Origin: a virus
Lineage: Duplodnaviria > Caudoviricetes
Virus record (IMG/VR): IMGVR_UViG_3300006045_001036
Strand: one strand, 5' to 3'
DNA length: 64,000 nt
The notes beneath the pieces are model-generated. The model saw only the letters and a program-made list of their open reading frames with translations, made no database searches and was not told the DNA's origin. The position numbers were made by a program, and so were the translations under genes. Every line of letters starts with the position of its first letter. Position 1 is the first letter of the stretch. Shown one piece after another: positions 1 through 32,590 of the stretch.

Positions 1-432
1 CGCTGTTGCGAACGAACCGCCTTTTCCGTCTTCGCCTAATTGCGGTGTTTCAATTTTAAAAGCGTAATTACCCGTTTGTGAAGAAGAAACTGCGTTTATC
101 CTGAGATAGTATGTTGTCCCTGCTGTCAGTTCAGCGAAATATTCATTGGTGTAATAGTCAATTTGTGATTGATTAGCGTTATACAGGGTGAACCGAACAG
201 GCATACTAATGCCGTTTGTTATGATTTGATAACGACCTGTAACCGGTGCGGTAAATACGTAATACACATTTTGATTAACAGATAAGTTTCCTGTCATTGT
301 TTTGTCAAAATGTTCGGTTAAGTCAATTGCATTGGCGAAACTATCGCCCTCATTCGCTGTAATAATCGCAGCGGGGAATATGCCGATAATGATAGTGAAT
401 GCGATAATTCCCGATAATATCCTCTTTTTCAT
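1..432 (-). CDS. Host secreted/surface protein, 5' part (runs off left edge)
   Basis: ATG at 432 with GGAG RBS; MKKRILSGIIAFTIIIGIFPAAIITA looks like a signal peptide, followed by a beta-rich PPC-like segment (YVFTAPVTGRYQI...LTAGTTYYLRI). Not in the ORF track because it is truncated. Confidence 0.75.
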   Translation of the reverse strand, partial: MKKRILSGIIAFTIIIGIFPAAIITANEGDSFANAIDLTEHFDKTMTGNLSVNQNVYYVFTAPVTGRYQIITNGISMPVRFTLYNANQSQIDYYTNEYFAELTAGTTYYLRINAVSSSQTGNYAFKIETPQLGEDGKGGSFATA

Positions 433-503
433 TTTTTGAATTCTCCTACATAGAATAAGATAATTTTCATTCTAATACATCATTTAGCATTAGTTCACTG
501 TAT

Positions 504-532
504 ATTATACCACTATCGTTTACATTTGTCAA
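504..532 (-). promoter_or_regulatory. sigmaA promoter of the host gene
   Basis: TTGACA-17 bp-TATAAT on the - strand. Confidence 0.75.
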
Positions 533-552
533 GTATAAATCACTTTTTTTGC

Positions 553-794
553 CACGGCAAAAGCACTTACTTTTGAAAAAGGATTTTTTCAAGCACCGAA
601 ACATCAAGAGCCGCCATGAACATTTTGCGCTTAATACTCTGTTTTTTACCAACACAGGCGTTACGCAAAATAGGCAAAGCAGTTTTTCTCATCACATTCC
701 AATTAAGCGGCGAATTATCTTTGCGTTTTCTCGAATTATCCTCGCCGAAAGTGACATCAAGATGCCAATGAAGTTGATTTTCAATCGACCAATG
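553..794 (-). pseudogene. ISAs1-family transposase C-terminal remnant with one terminal repeat
   Basis: - strand reads HWSIENQLHWHLDVTFGEDNSRKRKDNSPLN...SIKRKMFMAALD...ILFQK*, the ISAs1 signature, followed by TGCTTTTGCCGTG; N-terminal part absent. Confidence 0.85.
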
Positions 795-963
795 ATACTA
801 TATCATTTACAGGATTATAAAAATGCTACTAATTCTAAATCCGCTTTTTCTCATCTTATACTTGATTGTATGATTGACCCTAAACGTATTTTGCGTTAAA
901 ACTAAATTTCCGTGATGTTTTGCAAAAGATTTTGTAATTTTAAAAAAATTTTATTAAAAAGTG

Positions 964-992
964 TTGCATTTCTAAAAAAAATATGCTATAAT
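964..992 (+). promoter_or_regulatory. sigmaA promoter of tRNA-Gln
   Basis: TTGCAT-17 bp-TATAAT with extended -10 TG. Confidence 0.75.
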
Positions 993-1010
993 TTTTAACA
1001 ATATGATTAA

Positions 1011-1082
1011 TGGGCTATCGCCAAGCGGTAAGGCACCAGACTTTGACTCTGGCATTCTTAGGTTCAAATCCTAATAGCCCAA
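1011..1082 (+). tRNA. tRNA-Gln(TTG), probable prophage attachment site
   Basis: TGGGCTA/TAGCCCA acceptor stem, GCC-AAGCGGTAA-GGC D arm, CCAGA-CTTTGAC-TCTGG anticodon arm, TTAGG-TTCAAAT-CCTAA T arm. Confidence 0.95.
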
Positions 1083-1084
1083 GC

Positions 1085-1123
1085 TCCGCAAACCTGTTCT
1101 ACAAGCGGGTTTGCGGATTTTTT
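1085..1123 (+). terminator. Intrinsic terminator after tRNA-Gln
   Basis: TCCGCAAACCTG/CGGGTTTGCGGA stem followed by a T run. Confidence 0.8.
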
Positions 1124-1185
1124 ATTTTCGTGAAATTTCTTCGGTTTTCGTCAGCTCCGCCACAGCTCCGCCTAAAAATTTGAAA

Positions 1186-1232
1186 AGTGCCAGACCGCAA
1201 GGATTGACAATTTTGAGGCGGTGCGGTATAAT
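1186..1232 (+). promoter_or_regulatory. sigmaA promoter P1 with upstream AGTGCCAGACC box
   Basis: TTGACA(1204)-17-TATAAT(1227); near-duplicate of P2. Confidence 0.7.
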
Positions 1233-1274
1233 CATGATATCATTTACGGAGGGGTTTGTCAAATGAAAGCTTAT

Positions 1275-1559
1275 TTACTTCTTTATCGCCTTAATCGCTT
1301 TTCTCTTGTTAACCCCACGCAAGTAGCTCTTTCGACGTAATTTCATTACATACTCTCGAATATCGTCGTTACTATTGCCAAGATTAATCATTGTTTTTAT
1401 TACAAAAGCATAGTCATCTGACGTTTCGTAAAGACAGTCCTCTCCCCGATGACCCACATCGCAACTGCCGTGACATCTTCCGTCATTAATGTCGGGGCAA
1501 CGTGTGTTTTTCTTGTAGACGTACAGTTTGCATGGACTCAACTTCCACTCTGTCATCAT
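1275..1559 (-). CDS. Hypothetical protein with Cys-rich N-terminus
   Basis: ORF with GAAAGGCGGTGA RBS before ATG 1559. Confidence 0.5.
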   Translation of the reverse strand: MMTEWKLSPCKLYVYKKNTRCPDINDGRCHGSCDVGHRGEDCLYETSDDYAFVIKTMINLGNSNDDIREYVMKLRRKSYLRGVNKRKAIKAIKK

Positions 1560-1593
1560 GTTATTCACCGCCTTTCTACGAACTTTATAAAAG

Positions 1594-1639
1594 AGTGCCA
1601 GACCAAAAGCTTGACAAACTTATGAAAATGTGGTATAAT
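1594..1639 (+). promoter_or_regulatory. sigmaA promoter P2 with upstream AGTGCCAGACC box
   Basis: TTGACA(1611)-17-TATAAT(1634). Confidence 0.75.
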
Positions 1640-1673
1640 TCGCATATAAATACGGAAAGGAATATGTTATATT

Positions 1674-1859
1674 ATGAACAAAGAACAAATTATACACGAC
1701 ATCGCAATAAAGTGCTTGGGAGTCTTTTGGGATGAAAACAATAAACCAAACTACGACGCAACGCTTGAAAGCTACTTAAACCATGTGGAAGCAATCCGTG
1801 AATCTAAATTTTTGGGAAAACTTGAAAAGAGTCTGCGACGTTCTCAATCGTTGGTTTGA
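1674..1859 (+). CDS. Small hypothetical protein
   Basis: Downstream of P2 with GGAAAGGA RBS. Confidence 0.55.
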   Translation: MNKEQIIHDIAIKCLGVFWDENNKPNYDATLESYLNHVEAIRESKFLGKLEKSLRRSQSLV

Positions 1860-2021
1860 AATTTACTGCCGTTTGTCTCAGTATGTCTTGCGAACACGAC
1901 TCAAGTATACGAAGTGCCATACATACCTGTGTGCCTTGAAGAATTTCAAGTATTTGTACGGCTTTCTTTTTGTCTGCTTCTTTAAAAGATATTTCTATTC
2001 TCATAACGTAAAGCCCTCCTT

Positions 2022-2660
2022 TCAAATTATCGTTATCGTCTCTGTATGGTGACATTTCGAGTACATAGCGTAAATTCGTGGTCTGTTTGTAACAGGTACG
2101 GTAGTACGACCAGCAATACCTTTACCCGAGATTTCAACTGTTTTGTCGTCCTCGCTCCCAATATGTCCATGACCGTGACTGTGGCTGCCGAGAACAGCGA
2201 AAATCGCTAACGGCTCTCCTTGCACCGATTCCGCCGAGATTTTAAGTTCGTCAGGTACATCGGCAAGGATTGTTTCACCGAGTAGTAATCTTTGTGTCAA
2301 GTCTTTACGTTGTCCCTTTTCTTCGCCGTATCTCTCAAGCTCATTGCTTATTTGAGTTCGCATATTTTGCAGAGCATCCTCCGTGATTACGCCGTCAGGG
2401 TCGTAAATCGGGTACACCGTGACAGGTTTAAAGGGGTCGGGTACATAATTCGGGCAGTGGGGGTTATTTATCCGATACCATTTATGCGGGATTATCATTT
2501 TGAGCAAACCATCTACGCCGTACCAATAACAAGCGAAGTGCGTTTTATGCGTCCATGACAATCGAGGACACGGTACCCACAACCCCTGTTCTTCGTCGTA
2601 CCTAATCGGAAGTATGACACCTTCCGTATCTTCCACTATATCTTGTAAAACAAAACTCAT
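2022..2660 (-). CDS. Hypothetical phage protein
   Basis: 212 aa ORF, GAGGT RBS, GCATTTATTT motif ~35 nt upstream. Confidence 0.65.
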   Translation of the reverse strand: MSFVLQDIVEDTEGVILPIRYDEEQGLWVPCPRLSWTHKTHFACYWYGVDGLLKMIIPHKWYRINNPHCPNYVPDPFKPVTVYPIYDPDGVITEDALQNMRTQISNELERYGEEKGQRKDLTQRLLLGETILADVPDELKISAESVQGEPLAIFAVLGSHSHGHGHIGSEDDKTVEISGKGIAGRTTVPVTNRPRIYAMYSKCHHTETITII

Positions 2661-2798
2661 TTTGCTTTACCTCACTTTCATGTGTTTATTCTTAAATAAA
2701 TGCTTTCACCACAAAACTATCGAAAGCGTTGTGAATCGCTTATACGGAACCACTAAAAACTTTCACGACATATTGTGAAAGTTTGGTAGAATTTTCGC

Positions 2799-2827
2799 TT
2801 GACCGCACGTGAATTGTCTGTTATAAT
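2799..2827 (+). promoter_or_regulatory. sigmaA promoter P3
   Basis: TTGACC-17-TATAAT. Confidence 0.65.
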
Positions 2828-2981
2828 GAGTATAATGAAAACAGAGAGTTTGGAGAAACCCATAGGATAACTCAACTCTCTGCTTATCAAGGACACCATG
2901 TTAACATCCGCTCGTTCTCAATATGAGTCTAAATCTCTTCACCGCAGAATTTGCCGATGTTCGAATGTCTGAATACCACCC

Positions 2982-3012
2982 CCGCCCGTCATCTCCCGAC
3001 GGGCGGTTTTTT
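2982..3012 (+). terminator. Intrinsic terminator closing the P3 unit
   Basis: CCGCCCGTC/GACGGGCGG stem followed by T6. Confidence 0.8.
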
Positions 3013-3092
3013 ATATTCTTATTTTAAATAAATGCTTTCACCACAACCCTATAAATAGTTACGGCGGTTTTTATTGTCACAACATATCGTGG

Positions 3093-3159
3093 TTGACAGA
3101 CAATCTAAAACGTGTTATAATGGTTATACAGAGGAAAGGTTTCCTCTGTATAACCATTA
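3093..3159 (+). promoter_or_regulatory. sigmaA promoter P4 overlapped by a perfect 20-bp inverted repeat
   Basis: TTGACA(3093)-17-TATAAT(3116); TAATGGTTATACAGAGGAAA-gg-TTTCCTCTGTATAACCATTA at 3118-3159. Confidence 0.75.
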
Positions 3160-3898
3160 ACCATAGTATTCTCCCGAAAGGAGGGTTGCCCCATGAAAGA
3201 CGCTATTCATTATGAAGAGTGTTCTAAAGCCCTCATGAAGGGACGGTTGCAGGGAATAGGTAACGATGTGTAGGCGACCTCGTTAATGCTCAGTTAGTAG
3301 GCACTACACACCGCATTCCACACAGTAGCTAATTGTGTGCCGAATTGGTGAAACCTGTCACCCTCGGAAGTCACTGCCCAAAGCAACTTGAATGTTATTC
3401 CCGATTTTGCCGAAACCTGTCGGCTCTTGTACTAACAACCAAATCCTGTTTGTTGTCGATAAACAAGCAGGATTTGTTTAATTTGAGTTTACAAACCCAT
3501 ATCTTGTGTATAAATCTATGCTATAATAATTTCACCGAGCGAGGTGCAACTCACTCGGTGAATTCCCGACGAAAGGCGGTGATTGCCGTCCAAACTTTGG
3601 TAATGTCGGGTTGCAGGGATTGGCAACGAAAATGGTCAACCGTACTCAGCCCAGTTAGCAACAACCTTTTTCGCAAACTGCGTTTTGGTGAATATACCAC
3701 GTACACGGTGTAATTTGTGTACTGTCAGTTTGTAATCCCTATACACCCTTATGATGTGTACATACGTGCTATGTCAAAGCACATACTACGCTCGAACGTT
3801 AGCTAACAATAAAACTCTGTCTCTAACCAGACGGAGTTTTATATTTCGAGTTTACTGACCCTTCTAAAAATAAATGCTGTTTACTCTTGTCAAATGAT

Positions 3899-4237
3899 TT
3901 AGTACTGAACTCGAAACATTGTGAAATGCCCCATGGATGCCTTAATTACAATCGGCTGACCCTCAAGTGTACCTTCATAGATATCGGCTCCCGACTCACC
4001 CATATATTCCTTTGCAGCAGGGTGGTCGCTAAATTTGCTGTTAATTGTCGCAGCAGCTTGCACAAGTTCGTAGTCTCTTCCGTCATCTTCGTTTGAAACA
4101 TACTCGAAATCAAAATCGTCTCCTAACATCGATTCCAGCATCGCTACCTCATCTTCCTCGAAATAATCGCTGTTCCACGCTACATTTTTCCACGCCGATT
4201 GTTTCTCCTGTTTCGCCGAACTAATTAATTTAATCAT
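3899..4237 (-). CDS. Acidic hypothetical protein (MIKLISSA N-terminus)
   Basis: AAAGGAG RBS, 112 aa. Confidence 0.7.
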   Translation of the reverse strand: MIKLISSAKQEKQSAWKNVAWNSDYFEEDEVAMLESMLGDDFDFEYVSNEDDGRDYELVQAAATINSKFSDHPAAKEYMGESGADIYEGTLEGQPIVIKASMGHFTMFRVQY

Positions 4238-4371
4238 TGGTTTATCTCCTTTGGCTTTTTATAGACTTTTCTGTCAATGCTTTTGTTTTACAGGAGGGTT
4301 GACAGGAGTGGTGCTGCATTACTCCTAATCCCCCAACAACCCATAGAGCAAACATCCTTGCTACACCGAGT

Positions 4372-29078: not shown

Positions 29079-29199
29079 TGGCTTAGGTGGGATTCGAACC
29101 CACGACTTTCGTGTACAGCGAGCGACCTAATCCTTTCAAGGTATACATTTATAGCTCTGTCATCTACCGCACGACCCTCTACCGCTGAGGTACACAGCC
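29079..29199 (-). ncRNA. tRNA-like RNA A with a 56-nt segment in place of the anticodon loop
   Basis: CCTC-AGCGGTA-GAGG D arm, TCGTG/CACGA stem, GTGGG-TTCGAAT-CCCAC T arm, acceptor GGCTGTG/CTAAGCC with 2 mismatches. Confidence 0.7.
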
Positions 29200-29270
29200 A
29201 TCTATGTGCGAAACAAAACCAAAGCACAGCGTCTCGCACAAAAGATTACGTACAAATTAAGAAATGCTAA

Positions 29271-29600
29271 TGGAGTCGAGGGGAATCGAACCCCTGTCCA
29301 AACCCAGTTCGGAAACATCATTTATCACCGTAGTCTGTTTATCTTTAACAGACAAAGCCGTCCCGATATTCCGAGAAGTCGGGCAACACTCATGGTGAGC
29401 GACAATTTAACAGCAGTTATTACCGCTATCACGACCCGCTCGTACCGTTAACTGACGGAATTCTTTAACCGCAAGCACTTACCTCCGTCGGTGTGCTGTT
29501 TTGGATGTTGCTGCGTTTAGGCAGCGACTAATGCTCCAACAGGAGCAAAAGCGATAATCTTAGTTTGTTTAGCGTTTAAGATTTAATTGCCAGATTGAAA
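29271..29600 (-). ncRNA. ssrA: tmRNA: tag frame, pseudoknots and 3' tRNA-like half present; 5' strand not found in its normal place
   Basis: 3' end GGAC-AGGGG-TTCGATT-CCCCT-CGACTCC-A; tag AKQTKIIAFAPVGALVAA* at 29573-29517 after TTAAAC; pk2-like AGCAC/GTGCT crossed by GACGGAG/TTCCGTC. Confidence 0.85.
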
Positions 29601-29732
29601 TGGCTTAGAATCCCCGCAATACGTACCTTTCGGGAATGGACGAGCGAAACAATACCCTTGATGGTTGCCTTCTGATATCGGCTCAAACTCAGCACAATCA
29701 CGACACTTTGGTTTGTTGTTATTTGCCATCAT
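29583..29732 (-). CDS. 49-aa Cys-rich peptide
   Basis: GAAAGGA RBS; KCRDCAEF...GYC...YC. Confidence 0.55.
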   Translation of the reverse strand: MMANNNKPKCRDCAEFEPISEGNHQGYCFARPFPKGTYCGDSKPFQSGN

Positions 29733-29742
29733 TGTAATCCTT

Positions 29743-30015
29743 TCATAAACTGCTTTTACGCTCGAAACAATGACTGCAATACACAGGCTTGTCGTCTCGG
29801 GGCTTGAACGGCACTTTAGCTTCACCGCCACATTCCGCACATATCGCTGTGAAAGTTTCTCGATTTTCAAAAGAAGCTTTCTTAGCATCACGGCAGGGTT
29901 TGCAACGTTGCGGTTGATTAGTTAGTCCTTTTTCTGCGTAGAACGCTTGTTCACCTTCAGTGAAAATAAAGTCACGTCCGCAGTCTTTACAGTTAAGGGT
30001 CTTGTCTTCGTACAT
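29743..30015 (-). CDS. Zinc-ribbon protein (zf-trcl plus CxxC-x17-CxxC)
   Basis: MYEDKTLNCKDCGRDFIFTEGEQAFYAEKG...PQRCKPCR...CAECG...VPFKP...VYCSHCF. Confidence 0.9.
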   Translation of the reverse strand: MYEDKTLNCKDCGRDFIFTEGEQAFYAEKGLTNQPQRCKPCRDAKKASFENRETFTAICAECGGEAKVPFKPRDDKPVYCSHCFERKSSL

Positions 30016-30146
30016 TTTTGGATACCTCATAATTTTTCTTAGTAGGCTCAGTAATTCATATTAAGAACCGAAGCACCGCCGAGCCATCAGCGACCTCGAT
30101 AATATTAAAGATTTTGACGGCGGATATATCGTTTCACCGACCGATA

Positions 30147-30866
30147 CTAACCTTGTAACCTTGTGTATTGGACTTTGCCGTTAATCACTTTTCTCTCCTT
30201 CGCCGAGGAAAGAATTGCTTTATCAGAATTCAAAATATCATCAAGCGTAGCGTTCTCGAAGTATGTCTTGTATCCGTTCACGCTCTCTCGAGATATAGAA
30301 AACCTCTTATTTTTCAGTCCATAACTTGAATTCAAAATCACCTTATCAATGATAACTTTGTTCCAATCAAAACCATCTGAGGAAATTCGGAAGTCTATTG
30401 TATTTCCGTATACAGCTACTTTGACAAACTGTTGTACGAGGTAATCGTACCACTTTGAGTTGATTTCGTCGAAAGATGGTAAGGTTGACGCAAGTGCTTC
30501 AAGCTCTGTCAAAGTCTGATTTAACAACAAATCCATCGACAAATCTCTCATCTTAGGAGCATATCGCCCGAGTTCGGCAAGATATTTGAATTTCGTCATT
30601 TCCACAATACCGAGTTCGGCGGAGTCTGTCTCATTTAGAAAATCTATTCCGTTGGCAACAATTATCGCTGAAGCTTCGTCATCGGTGATTCGACCTGTGT
30701 TTAATAAGAATTCTGCGTCAATTGGTGCAAGAAACTCCTTGCCTCGACCAACCCATTTTGTAGAAGGAACATGAAGATAAACAGGAGTTAGTTTGCCGTC
30801 TCTATCAAGAAGATAAGAGCCTGATAAAGTTTCTTGAACACCCGCAGCACTTCTAATCGTAATCAT
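30147..30866 (-). CDS. Hypothetical protein (MITIRSAA N-terminus)
   Basis: 239 aa; start overlaps the rpsU stop. Confidence 0.65.
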   Translation of the reverse strand: MITIRSAAGVQETLSGSYLLDRDGKLTPVYLHVPSTKWVGRGKEFLAPIDAEFLLNTGRITDDEASAIIVANGIDFLNETDSAELGIVEMTKFKYLAELGRYAPKMRDLSMDLLLNQTLTELEALASTLPSFDEINSKWYDYLVQQFVKVAVYGNTIDFRISSDGFDWNKVIIDKVILNSSYGLKNKRFSISRESVNGYKTYFENATLDDILNSDKAILSSAKERKVINGKVQYTRLQG

Positions 30867-31099
30867 CTTGAATTTCCTCTACTTTCGTACCGTGCTTGAC
30901 GTAATTTCGCAAGTTTCTCTTCCTTCAATCGTCTTTCCTCGGCACGACGAGCTTTATTTTTACGCTTGACAGAGGGTTTCTCGTAATGCTGTCTTCGTTG
31001 AAGTTCCTCGTAAAGCCCTGCCCGACGACAAGCTTGCTTGAAACGGCTAATCGCAGTTTCCAATGACTCATTTCTGCCGACACGGATTTCTATATTCAT
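30863..31099 (-). CDS. rpsU: Ribosomal protein bS21, phage-encoded
   Basis: IRVGRNESLETAISRFKQACRRAGLYEELQRRQHYEKPSVKRK; ATG 31099 chosen because the longer ORF-track start overlaps a tRNA-like gene. Confidence 0.9.
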   Translation of the reverse strand: MNIEIRVGRNESLETAISRFKQACRRAGLYEELQRRQHYEKPSVKRKNKARRAEERRLKEEKLAKLRQARYESRGNSR

Positions 31100-31193
31100 G
31101 CTTGGATACTTCGCTTTCCTTATATTAAAAAGCAACCTCACCACGTTTCTTCGCCCATTTGCGTCATCGCTCAGGCAGGTTCTGGTTGCTAAT

Positions 31194-31264
31194 CGGAGCG
31201 GGTGGGACTCGAACCCACGACTCTGTGCTGGTACACCCACTCTAACCGCCTGAGTTACCGCCCC
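31194..31264 (-). ncRNA. tRNA-like RNA B with shortened anticodon arm
   Basis: GGGGCGG/CCGCTCC acceptor, ACTC-AGGCGGTTA-GAGT D arm, GTGGG-TTCGAGT-CCCAC T arm; anticodon arm only GTGT-ACCA-GCAC. Confidence 0.75.
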
Positions 31265-32371: not shown

Positions 32372-32590
32372 TTATTTCGCTCTCCACGAAATACGCCCTT
32401 TAGTCAAATCATACGGCGACATCTCCACCGTAACCTTATCACCCCGAATAACCTTAATGTGGTTCATTCGAAGTCGTCCCGAGATATTACAGCGAACCTT
32501 GTGACCGTTGCCGAAAATTACGTTAAAGAATCCGCTCGGCAGTACCTCGTCAACTACACCGTCAACCTCAATTACATCGTCTTTAGCCAT
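32372..32590 (-). CDS. infA: Translation initiation factor IF-1, phage-encoded
   Basis: MAKDDVIEVDGVVDEVLP...ISGRLRMNHIKVIRGDKVTVEMSPYDLTKGRI. Confidence 0.97.
   Translation of the reverse strand: MAKDDVIEVDGVVDEVLPSGFFNVIFGNGHKVRCNISGRLRMNHIKVIRGDKVTVEMSPYDLTKGRISWRAK

Follow-up and report, generated by a model that had tools for sequence, protein, structure and literature searches.

Phage-encoded tmRNAs have been described in the mycobacteriophage Bxz1 group and in Bacillus phage G, and phage DS6A carries a form reduced to the tRNA-like domain (TLD-only) (PMC4131195). A molecule similar to this TLD-only form is reported to inhibit tmRNA strongly, perhaps by titrating SmpB (PMC4131195). In huge phages, tmRNA is carried together with SmpB (PMC7162821). 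Here we describe a phage locus at which a tmRNA gene lacks its 5' end, and compare it with the intact gene of a relative.

The DNA analyzed (hereafter the window) is a stretch of 64,000 nucleotides belonging to a 219,530-bp contig, from a phage of about 220 kb. The neighbors of the tmRNA locus comprise genes for IF-1 (PF01176) and bS21 (PF01165), several tRNAs, a head-protease-like protein and tail-fibre-like proteins. The locus is a translation-gene island within a large phage and not a prophage junction.

Positions 29596-29272 of the minus strand contain a real tmRNA remnant whose 5' acceptor strand is missing. The first-pass annotation had described a tmRNA body without its 5' strand, and the tag, the T arm and the acceptor end CGACTCC-A on which that description was based are confirmed. 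It had also proposed a check with ARAGORN and with the Rfam tmRNA family. This check recovered the remnant with ARAGORN at a lowered threshold (80%) and as a sub-threshold Rfam match, but default ARAGORN and the gathering score both failed. Indeed, ARAGORN with default settings reported three tRNAs and no tmRNA over the window, and Rfam at gathering thresholds gave four tRNA hits and no tmRNA. When hits were reported by E-value, the tmRNA family RF00023 matched 29268-29643 with 36.0 bits, against a gathering score of 47. In this alignment the 3' third was placed with high confidence, and the positions of the 5' acceptor strand, D-loop and helix 2 were gapped or mispaired.

The retained part contains the 3' half of pseudoknot 1 (PK1), the resume region, the tag frame, the pseudoknot region, the helix-2 3' strand, the T arm and the 3' acceptor strand (Table 1). 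As expected of a member of RF00023, the tag frame has an alanine resume codon, a hydrophobic C-terminal degron and a stop codon, and the T arm, with its GTTCGATTC-type loop, adjoins the acceptor 3' strand. The acceptor stem with its G3-U70 pair and helix 2 are each represented by their 3' strand only. Upstream of the resume codon, neither the sequence itself nor ARAGORN nor RF00023 revealed a 5' acceptor strand, a D-loop analogue or a helix-2 5' strand.

Table 1. Features at the tmRNA locus of the window, with the basis of each assignment.
Feature	Position	Strand	Basis or remark
Candidate 5' piece of the first-pass annotation	30045..30097	-	lies in the 239-aa gene/zf_Tbcl intergenic space, in a hairpin region conserved in L011
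zf_Tbcl treble-clef zinc-ribbon gene, 90 aa	29743..30015	-	PF13451 1.9e-23; PF23477 2.2e-18
Segment at the place of the L011 spacer and the first 62 nt of tmRNA	29597..29742	-	no similarity to L011:2275-2499
Orphan 49-codon Cys-rich ORF	29732-29583	-	14 nt overlap into the retained tmRNA part
Retained tmRNA part	29272..29596	-	aligned to L011:2562-2919, the 3' 358 nt of the intact tmRNA
Tag frame GCT...TAA, reading AKQTKIIAFAPVGALVAA and stop	29573-29517	-	ARAGORN at lowered threshold (80%)
Helix-2 3' strand, ending GGAC, 5' partner gone	29329-29296	-	identical to L011
T arm	29294-29280	-	sequence and Rfam alignment, high posterior probability
3' acceptor strand CGACTCC	29278-29272	-	sequence and Rfam alignment
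Discriminator A	29271	-	CCA not encoded
Permuted-type candidate: AGGGTCG, 13-nt linker ending GAC, AGAGCTA	29140..29178	-	RF04321 25 bits vs gathering score 47

Other substitutes for the missing domain were considered and rejected. A 5' domain at 29798, proposed by ARAGORN at the lowered threshold, lies inside the zf_Tbcl coding sequence and came with dozens of other low-score calls; it was considered as noise. In the MFE fold of 29745-29272, GAGTT inside the 49-codon ORF pairs with GACTC of the 3' end, and GTCCA..CCCG pairs with TGGG..TGGAC. This was not retained as an alternative tRNA-like domain, as its register has G3-C70 instead of G3-U70 and it lacks a D-loop analogue. Finally, a search for a group I intron or another known RNA between the candidate 5' piece at 30097 and the tag gave no Rfam hit at E <= 10.

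The Cys-rich ORF reported upstream of the resume codon is present. It is preceded by AAGGA, 5-6 nt before its ATG, and displays a CxxC...C...C pattern. No homologue was found at E <= 0.001 among 1.84 billion representative proteins, it belongs to no Pfam or PHROG family, and it was not called as a gene in the two source records. Its stop codon falls inside the PK1 remnant. The ORF is in the frame of the tag, separated from it by its TAA stop and three codons (29583-29573, minus strand); this shared frame is probably due to chance (1 in 3). The conclusion that the tmRNA gene is truncated is independent of whether this ORF is a gene.

An intact version of the gene was found in L011, a 7.6-kb JGI metagenome contig reached via a 72%-identical homologue of the locus-adjacent 239-aa protein. 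L011 is syntenic with the window, with flanking proteins 68-81% identical. Its order is IF-1, tRNA-Pro, bS21, a 238-aa gene, zf_Tbcl, a gene-free stretch of 1.1 kb, an orthologue of the 566-aa protein and GH5 cellulases. In the gene-free stretch, at the same position as the remnant, default ARAGORN called a 420-nt one-piece tmRNA (2500-2919). This tmRNA also exceeds the gathering score of RF00023, with 84.4 bits, and so passes the two tests that the window copy fails. Its tag, AKSAKIIAFAPPVGALAAA followed by a stop, is orthologous to the window tag AKQTKIIAFAPVGALVAA. The 5' end, GGGGTCG, pairs 7/7 with CGACTCC, including G3-U70. It is followed by a 13-nt linker ending TTCGAC and then by AGACTCA, which pairs 7/7 with TGGGTTT just before GGAC. 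In the MFE fold the ends of the molecule are closed and the T arm is formed. Positional and sequence homology to this intact gene establish that the window copy descends from a bona fide tmRNA gene.

The zf_Tbcl gene, which also has an orthologue in L011, is genuine and no part of the tmRNA. Its closest homologues are 70-74% identical and occur in Oscillospiraceae, Ruminococcus, Eubacterium and Clostridia MAGs. Going by these homologues only, Clostridia/Oscillospiraceae are the likely hosts of this clade of large phages. The zf_Tbcl homologues and the GH5 cellulase genes beside the L011 locus together hint at a gut or rumen Clostridia host.

The bS21 and IF-1 genes (30863-31105 and 32372-32590 of the window, minus strand) flank a tRNA cluster, and the same pair is found in L011. 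Just upstream of bS21, a tRNA-like RNA at 31194-31264 (minus strand; no counterpart reported in L011) scores 43 bits with the Rfam tRNA model. Its acceptor stem is fully paired and includes G3-U70, and its anticodon loop counts only 6 nt instead of the 9 of the model. Such an RNA would mimic a tRNA of alanine identity but lack an anticodon.

The pairwise alignment locates the loss precisely. The window and L011 align through the end of the 239-aa gene, the intergenic region and zf_Tbcl. Similarity then vanishes over 29742-29597 of the window and is abruptly back at 29596, which corresponds to L011 position 2562 inside PK1, from where it extends to the 3' end. The segment in between gave a local alignment score of 16 against L011:2275-2499, with a shuffle mean of 16.0. 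Positions 2500-2561 of L011 (62 nt) have no counterpart in the window. They comprise the 5' acceptor strand, the D-loop analogue, the entire helix-2 5' strand, from AGACTCA onward, and the 5' half of PK1. With homology restarting inside PK1, the window has a short alternative GCCA/TGGC pairing that is not comparable with L011.

The first-pass annotation had proposed a search of the whole prophage for a better 5' piece. None was found within the 64-kb window by pattern, blastn, nhmmer or tmRNA-family searches, which covered 64 kb of the approximately 219.5-kb phage genome. The 20-nt tmRNA 5' end of L011 had no match with up to 3 mismatches, blastn and nhmmer searches with the L011 5' part returned only noise, and no other tmRNA-family hit had E <= 1.

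A six-base match, CATTTC, abuts the gap on its left side in both the window and L011. It is compatible with a simple deletion of about 63 nt beside a spacer that has diverged beyond recognition. Replacement of the spacer together with the 5' end is equally possible.

From these comparisons, the remnant is probably a 5'-truncated phage tmRNA pseudogene that was formerly a standard one-piece gene. This agrees with the fallback reading of the first-pass annotation, a truncated or decaying ssrA, which gains support from the L011 homology and the breakpoint. The ancestor would have been arranged as in L011, with the zf_Tbcl gene, a spacer and a complete tmRNA. In the window phage the first ~62 nt would then have been lost, either by a clean deletion or by replacement along with the upstream spacer. 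Deprived of this part, the RNA should be unable to form the tRNA-like domain or an acceptor stem with G3-U70. AlaRS recognition depends on the G3-U70 pair in the acceptor helix. According to established tmRNA biology, an RNA lacking the acceptor stem and the tRNA-like domain would thus be neither charged nor active in trans-translation.

One close relative, L011, was found in the collections searched, and the truncation is not directly datable from it. A homologue search with the 566-aa downstream protein returned L011 alone. In IMG/VR, DNA patterns and the 171-aa protein gave no relatives of the window phage, one pattern matching unrelated tmRNAs only, and the 239-aa protein recovered a single relative, L002 (61% identical). 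L002 has a methyltransferase at the tmRNA position and no tmRNA; relatives at 47% have no tmRNA within 10 kb. DNA pattern searches in metagenome contigs and GTDB genomes, and a search among INPHARED phages, found no further relatives. With an intact copy in L011, a truncated one in the window phage and none in L002, the tmRNA is clearly accessory in this group, which suggests that it is dispensable. Separately, L006 (IMGVR_UViG_3300045988_147693, positions 1-4300), an unrelated 123-kb viral contig with at least 23 tRNAs, contains a 409-nt tmRNA scoring 82.5 bits with RF00023, whose tag as predicted by ARAGORN is unusual and non-degron-like.

The retained part has hardly decayed. In the stretch that opens with the helix-2 3' strand and closes just beyond the acceptor end, 60 of 61 nt are identical between the window and L011, the lone difference being in the T loop. 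The remnant also contains a 27-nt identical block, and the tag region is 77-93% identical. At fourfold-degenerate sites of four flanking genes, p is 0.57, corresponding to a Jukes-Cantor K of about 1.09 substitutions per site, and the non-coding flanks of the two phages are unalignable. By a rough Poisson estimate, neutral drift during a fraction f of the lineage would give about 33f substitutions in the 61 nt. With at most one substitution, f would be below about 0.14, or roughly the last one-seventh of the lineage divergence. The truncation is therefore recent, unless the remnant remains under constraint. Since the tRNA-like domain needs the 5' strand, AlaRS needs G3-U70 and the tmRNA is accessory in the group, recent inactivation is favored, and we infer that the remnant most likely became an inactive pseudogene only recently. 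The near absence of decay (60/61 despite the high neutral K) argues against this reading, as do the single close relative and the search scope of 64 out of about 219.5 kb, since a trans-acting 5' piece or a second, intact copy could lie in the rest of the genome.

The conservation could instead reflect selection for a non-canonical role, for example as a structured 3' region of the zf_Tbcl/ORF transcript, as a processing signal, or as a partial decoy that would engage SmpB or some other factor that binds tmRNA. Such a role would account for the near-perfect retained blocks at a neutral K of about 1.1. It is also in line with the remnant region folding better than its shuffles (z = -4.2), and with the TLD-only molecule of DS6A, to which an inhibitor of tmRNA is similar (PMC4131195). 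However, SmpB binds the folded tRNA-like domain, which the window RNA could not form without its 5' strand. Moreover, a recent deletion explains the conservation equally well, and there is no second truncated relative to show that the state is stable over time. Judged from these sequence comparisons, we consider a selected remnant unlikely.

The missing strand could also be supplied by another molecule. In a two-piece tmRNA, it would come from the stretch at 29178, as a new kind of circular permutation, or from a piece outside the window. The 29178 stretch begins 94 nt downstream of the remnant and would keep the G3-U70 pair. It belongs to five sites in the window that pass a joint filter (acceptor pairing of at least 6/7, a 13-nt linker ending GAC and helix 2a of at least 6/7), against a shuffle mean of 2.2. 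Its match to the permuted-tmRNA model RF04321 has a window-wide E-value of 0.4. However, the stretch would leave an A1-C72 mismatch and the rest of helix 2 unpaired, and in a comparison with the true 5' end, that of the L011 tmRNA, it ranked 3138 of 8522 and showed no resemblance. The stretch lies in a downstream tRNA-like element, of which it forms the D-arm and anticodon-stem region. A homologue of this element occupies the same place in L011, beside the intact tmRNA, where the same configuration still scores 21 bits with RF04321. The 29178 stretch was rejected as a 5' piece on this ground, and its match is treated as a coincidence of tRNA-like sequence. A two-piece molecule is very unlikely. 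Also very unlikely is a working tmRNA made of two transcripts or processed pieces, a long one with the tag and the 3' half of the tRNA-like domain and a short one with the 5' acceptor and helix-2 strands, derived from 29178 or from elsewhere in the 220-kb genome. If a two-piece form did exist, its break would lie between helix 2 and pseudoknot 1, unlike in all known permuted tmRNAs.

The tRNA-like element downstream of the remnant spans 29079-29200 of the window (minus strand) and 3006-3140 of L011. With introns allowed and a lowered threshold, ARAGORN reads the window element as a tRNA-Tyr(GTA) in which position 37 is followed by an insert of 49 nt. Its alignment to L011 spans two tRNA-like modules in tandem, which together match the Rfam YrlA family with 33 bits (E = 2.7e-4; gathering score 69). 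The element may represent a family of Y-RNA-like RNAs or tRNA mimics in phages.

A chimeric join inside the tmRNA gene was also considered, given that the record is a metagenome assembly and that the breakpoint falls inside a structured RNA. However, a second contig from another assembly and assembler (Logan SRR6220664) has the same gene order and spacing with the same 516-nt gap, and both flanks are syntenic with L011, making an assembly artefact extremely improbable.

The first-pass annotation had considered a different origin for the missing strand, namely a colinear split in which the 5' strand, at 30097-30045, and the body would be brought together over the intervening zf_Tbcl gene and 49-codon ORF. 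Its observation that GAGGTCG at 30097 pairs 6/7 with the acceptor strand is correct, but this pairing is no more than chance: the window contains 609 acceptor-like 7-mers pairing at 6/7 or better, about one per 210 nt. Moreover, the candidate is part of an intergenic element conserved in L011 (about 1908-1960, 50-90% identity), where the homologous 7-mer, GATGTTG, pairs only 5/7 and the 3' acceptor strand is unchanged. A T/C difference between the two phages (CTGAGCC vs CCGAGCC) keeps the local hairpin with GGCTCGG, as a G-U or a G-C pair. The hairpin is thus kept where the acceptor-like 7-mer is not, so the conserved structure at 30045-30097 is local. Despite the G3-U70 pair and three short blocks of complementarity that follow in the correct order, the colinear split is refuted by the complete and unrelated 5' end that L011 has in addition to the homologous element, and keeps next to no probability. 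An intact one-piece tmRNA of this kind in a related phage is what the first-pass annotation had itself named as a refutation.

A ranking of the 609 7-mers by duplex energy with the helix-2 3' strand, in which the 30097 candidate came 231st and the 29178 candidate 167th, was discarded as powerless, since the true L011 helix 2 (-20.0 kcal/mol) was like random candidates. The idea of an attP-type ssrA fragment serving for integration was likewise rejected, because L011 has an intact gene at the same internal locus with phage genes on both sides. The intergenic stretch at 30071-30131 (minus strand; L011 about 1875-1935) is 80-90% identical between the two phages, though neutral sites are near saturation, and no other intergenic sequence of the region is as well conserved. 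Next to it comes the hairpin that the G-U/G-C change preserves. The stretch probably serves zf_Tbcl as a promoter or another regulatory element.

Altogether, the apparent split tmRNA dissolves once a relative with an intact gene is found, which makes this locus a clean negative. It illustrates that chance alone is expected to place short acceptor-like matches close to a tmRNA fragment. It also records how tmRNA has been gained and lost among large phages of a clade with sparse sampling.

Compared with known systems, the window copy is closest to the standard one-piece tmRNA (RF00023) as found at L011:2500-2919. It lies at the same locus, and its sequence is homologous from inside pseudoknot 1 as far as the 3' end. 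The two share an alanine resume codon, a hydrophobic tag end of the form ...AL(V/A)AA, a T arm, a 3' acceptor strand with U70 and a discriminator A. What the window copy lacks relative to the L011 tmRNA is the 5' strand of both the acceptor stem and helix 2, together with the D-loop analogue and one half of PK1.

The resemblance to the permuted two-piece tmRNAs of alpha- and beta-proteobacteria and cyanobacteria (RF04321, RF01851) is superficial and comes from the acceptor-like 5' strand downstream of the T arm. Unlike permuted genes, the window copy has the one-piece order, with its tag upstream of the T arm, and its RF04321 score is below the gathering score. The acceptor-like strand itself is part of a distinct tRNA-like element, which L011 also has next to its intact gene.

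As in the Bxz1 group, phage G and the huge phages, the gene is found in a large phage in the company of tRNAs and translation factors (here IF-1 and bS21). Other phage tmRNAs have been reported as complete, or as TLD-only in DS6A, whereas the window copy has retained its mRNA-like part and, of the TLD, the 3' half only. In lacking one terminus, it is like the tmRNA gene copies at island junctions of bacterial chromosomes. Unlike these, it is surrounded by the genes of a phage translation island, and neither an integrase nor an att context is seen beside it. Thus, the window case is a phage instance of the known terminus-lacking tmRNA gene copies and not a new architecture.
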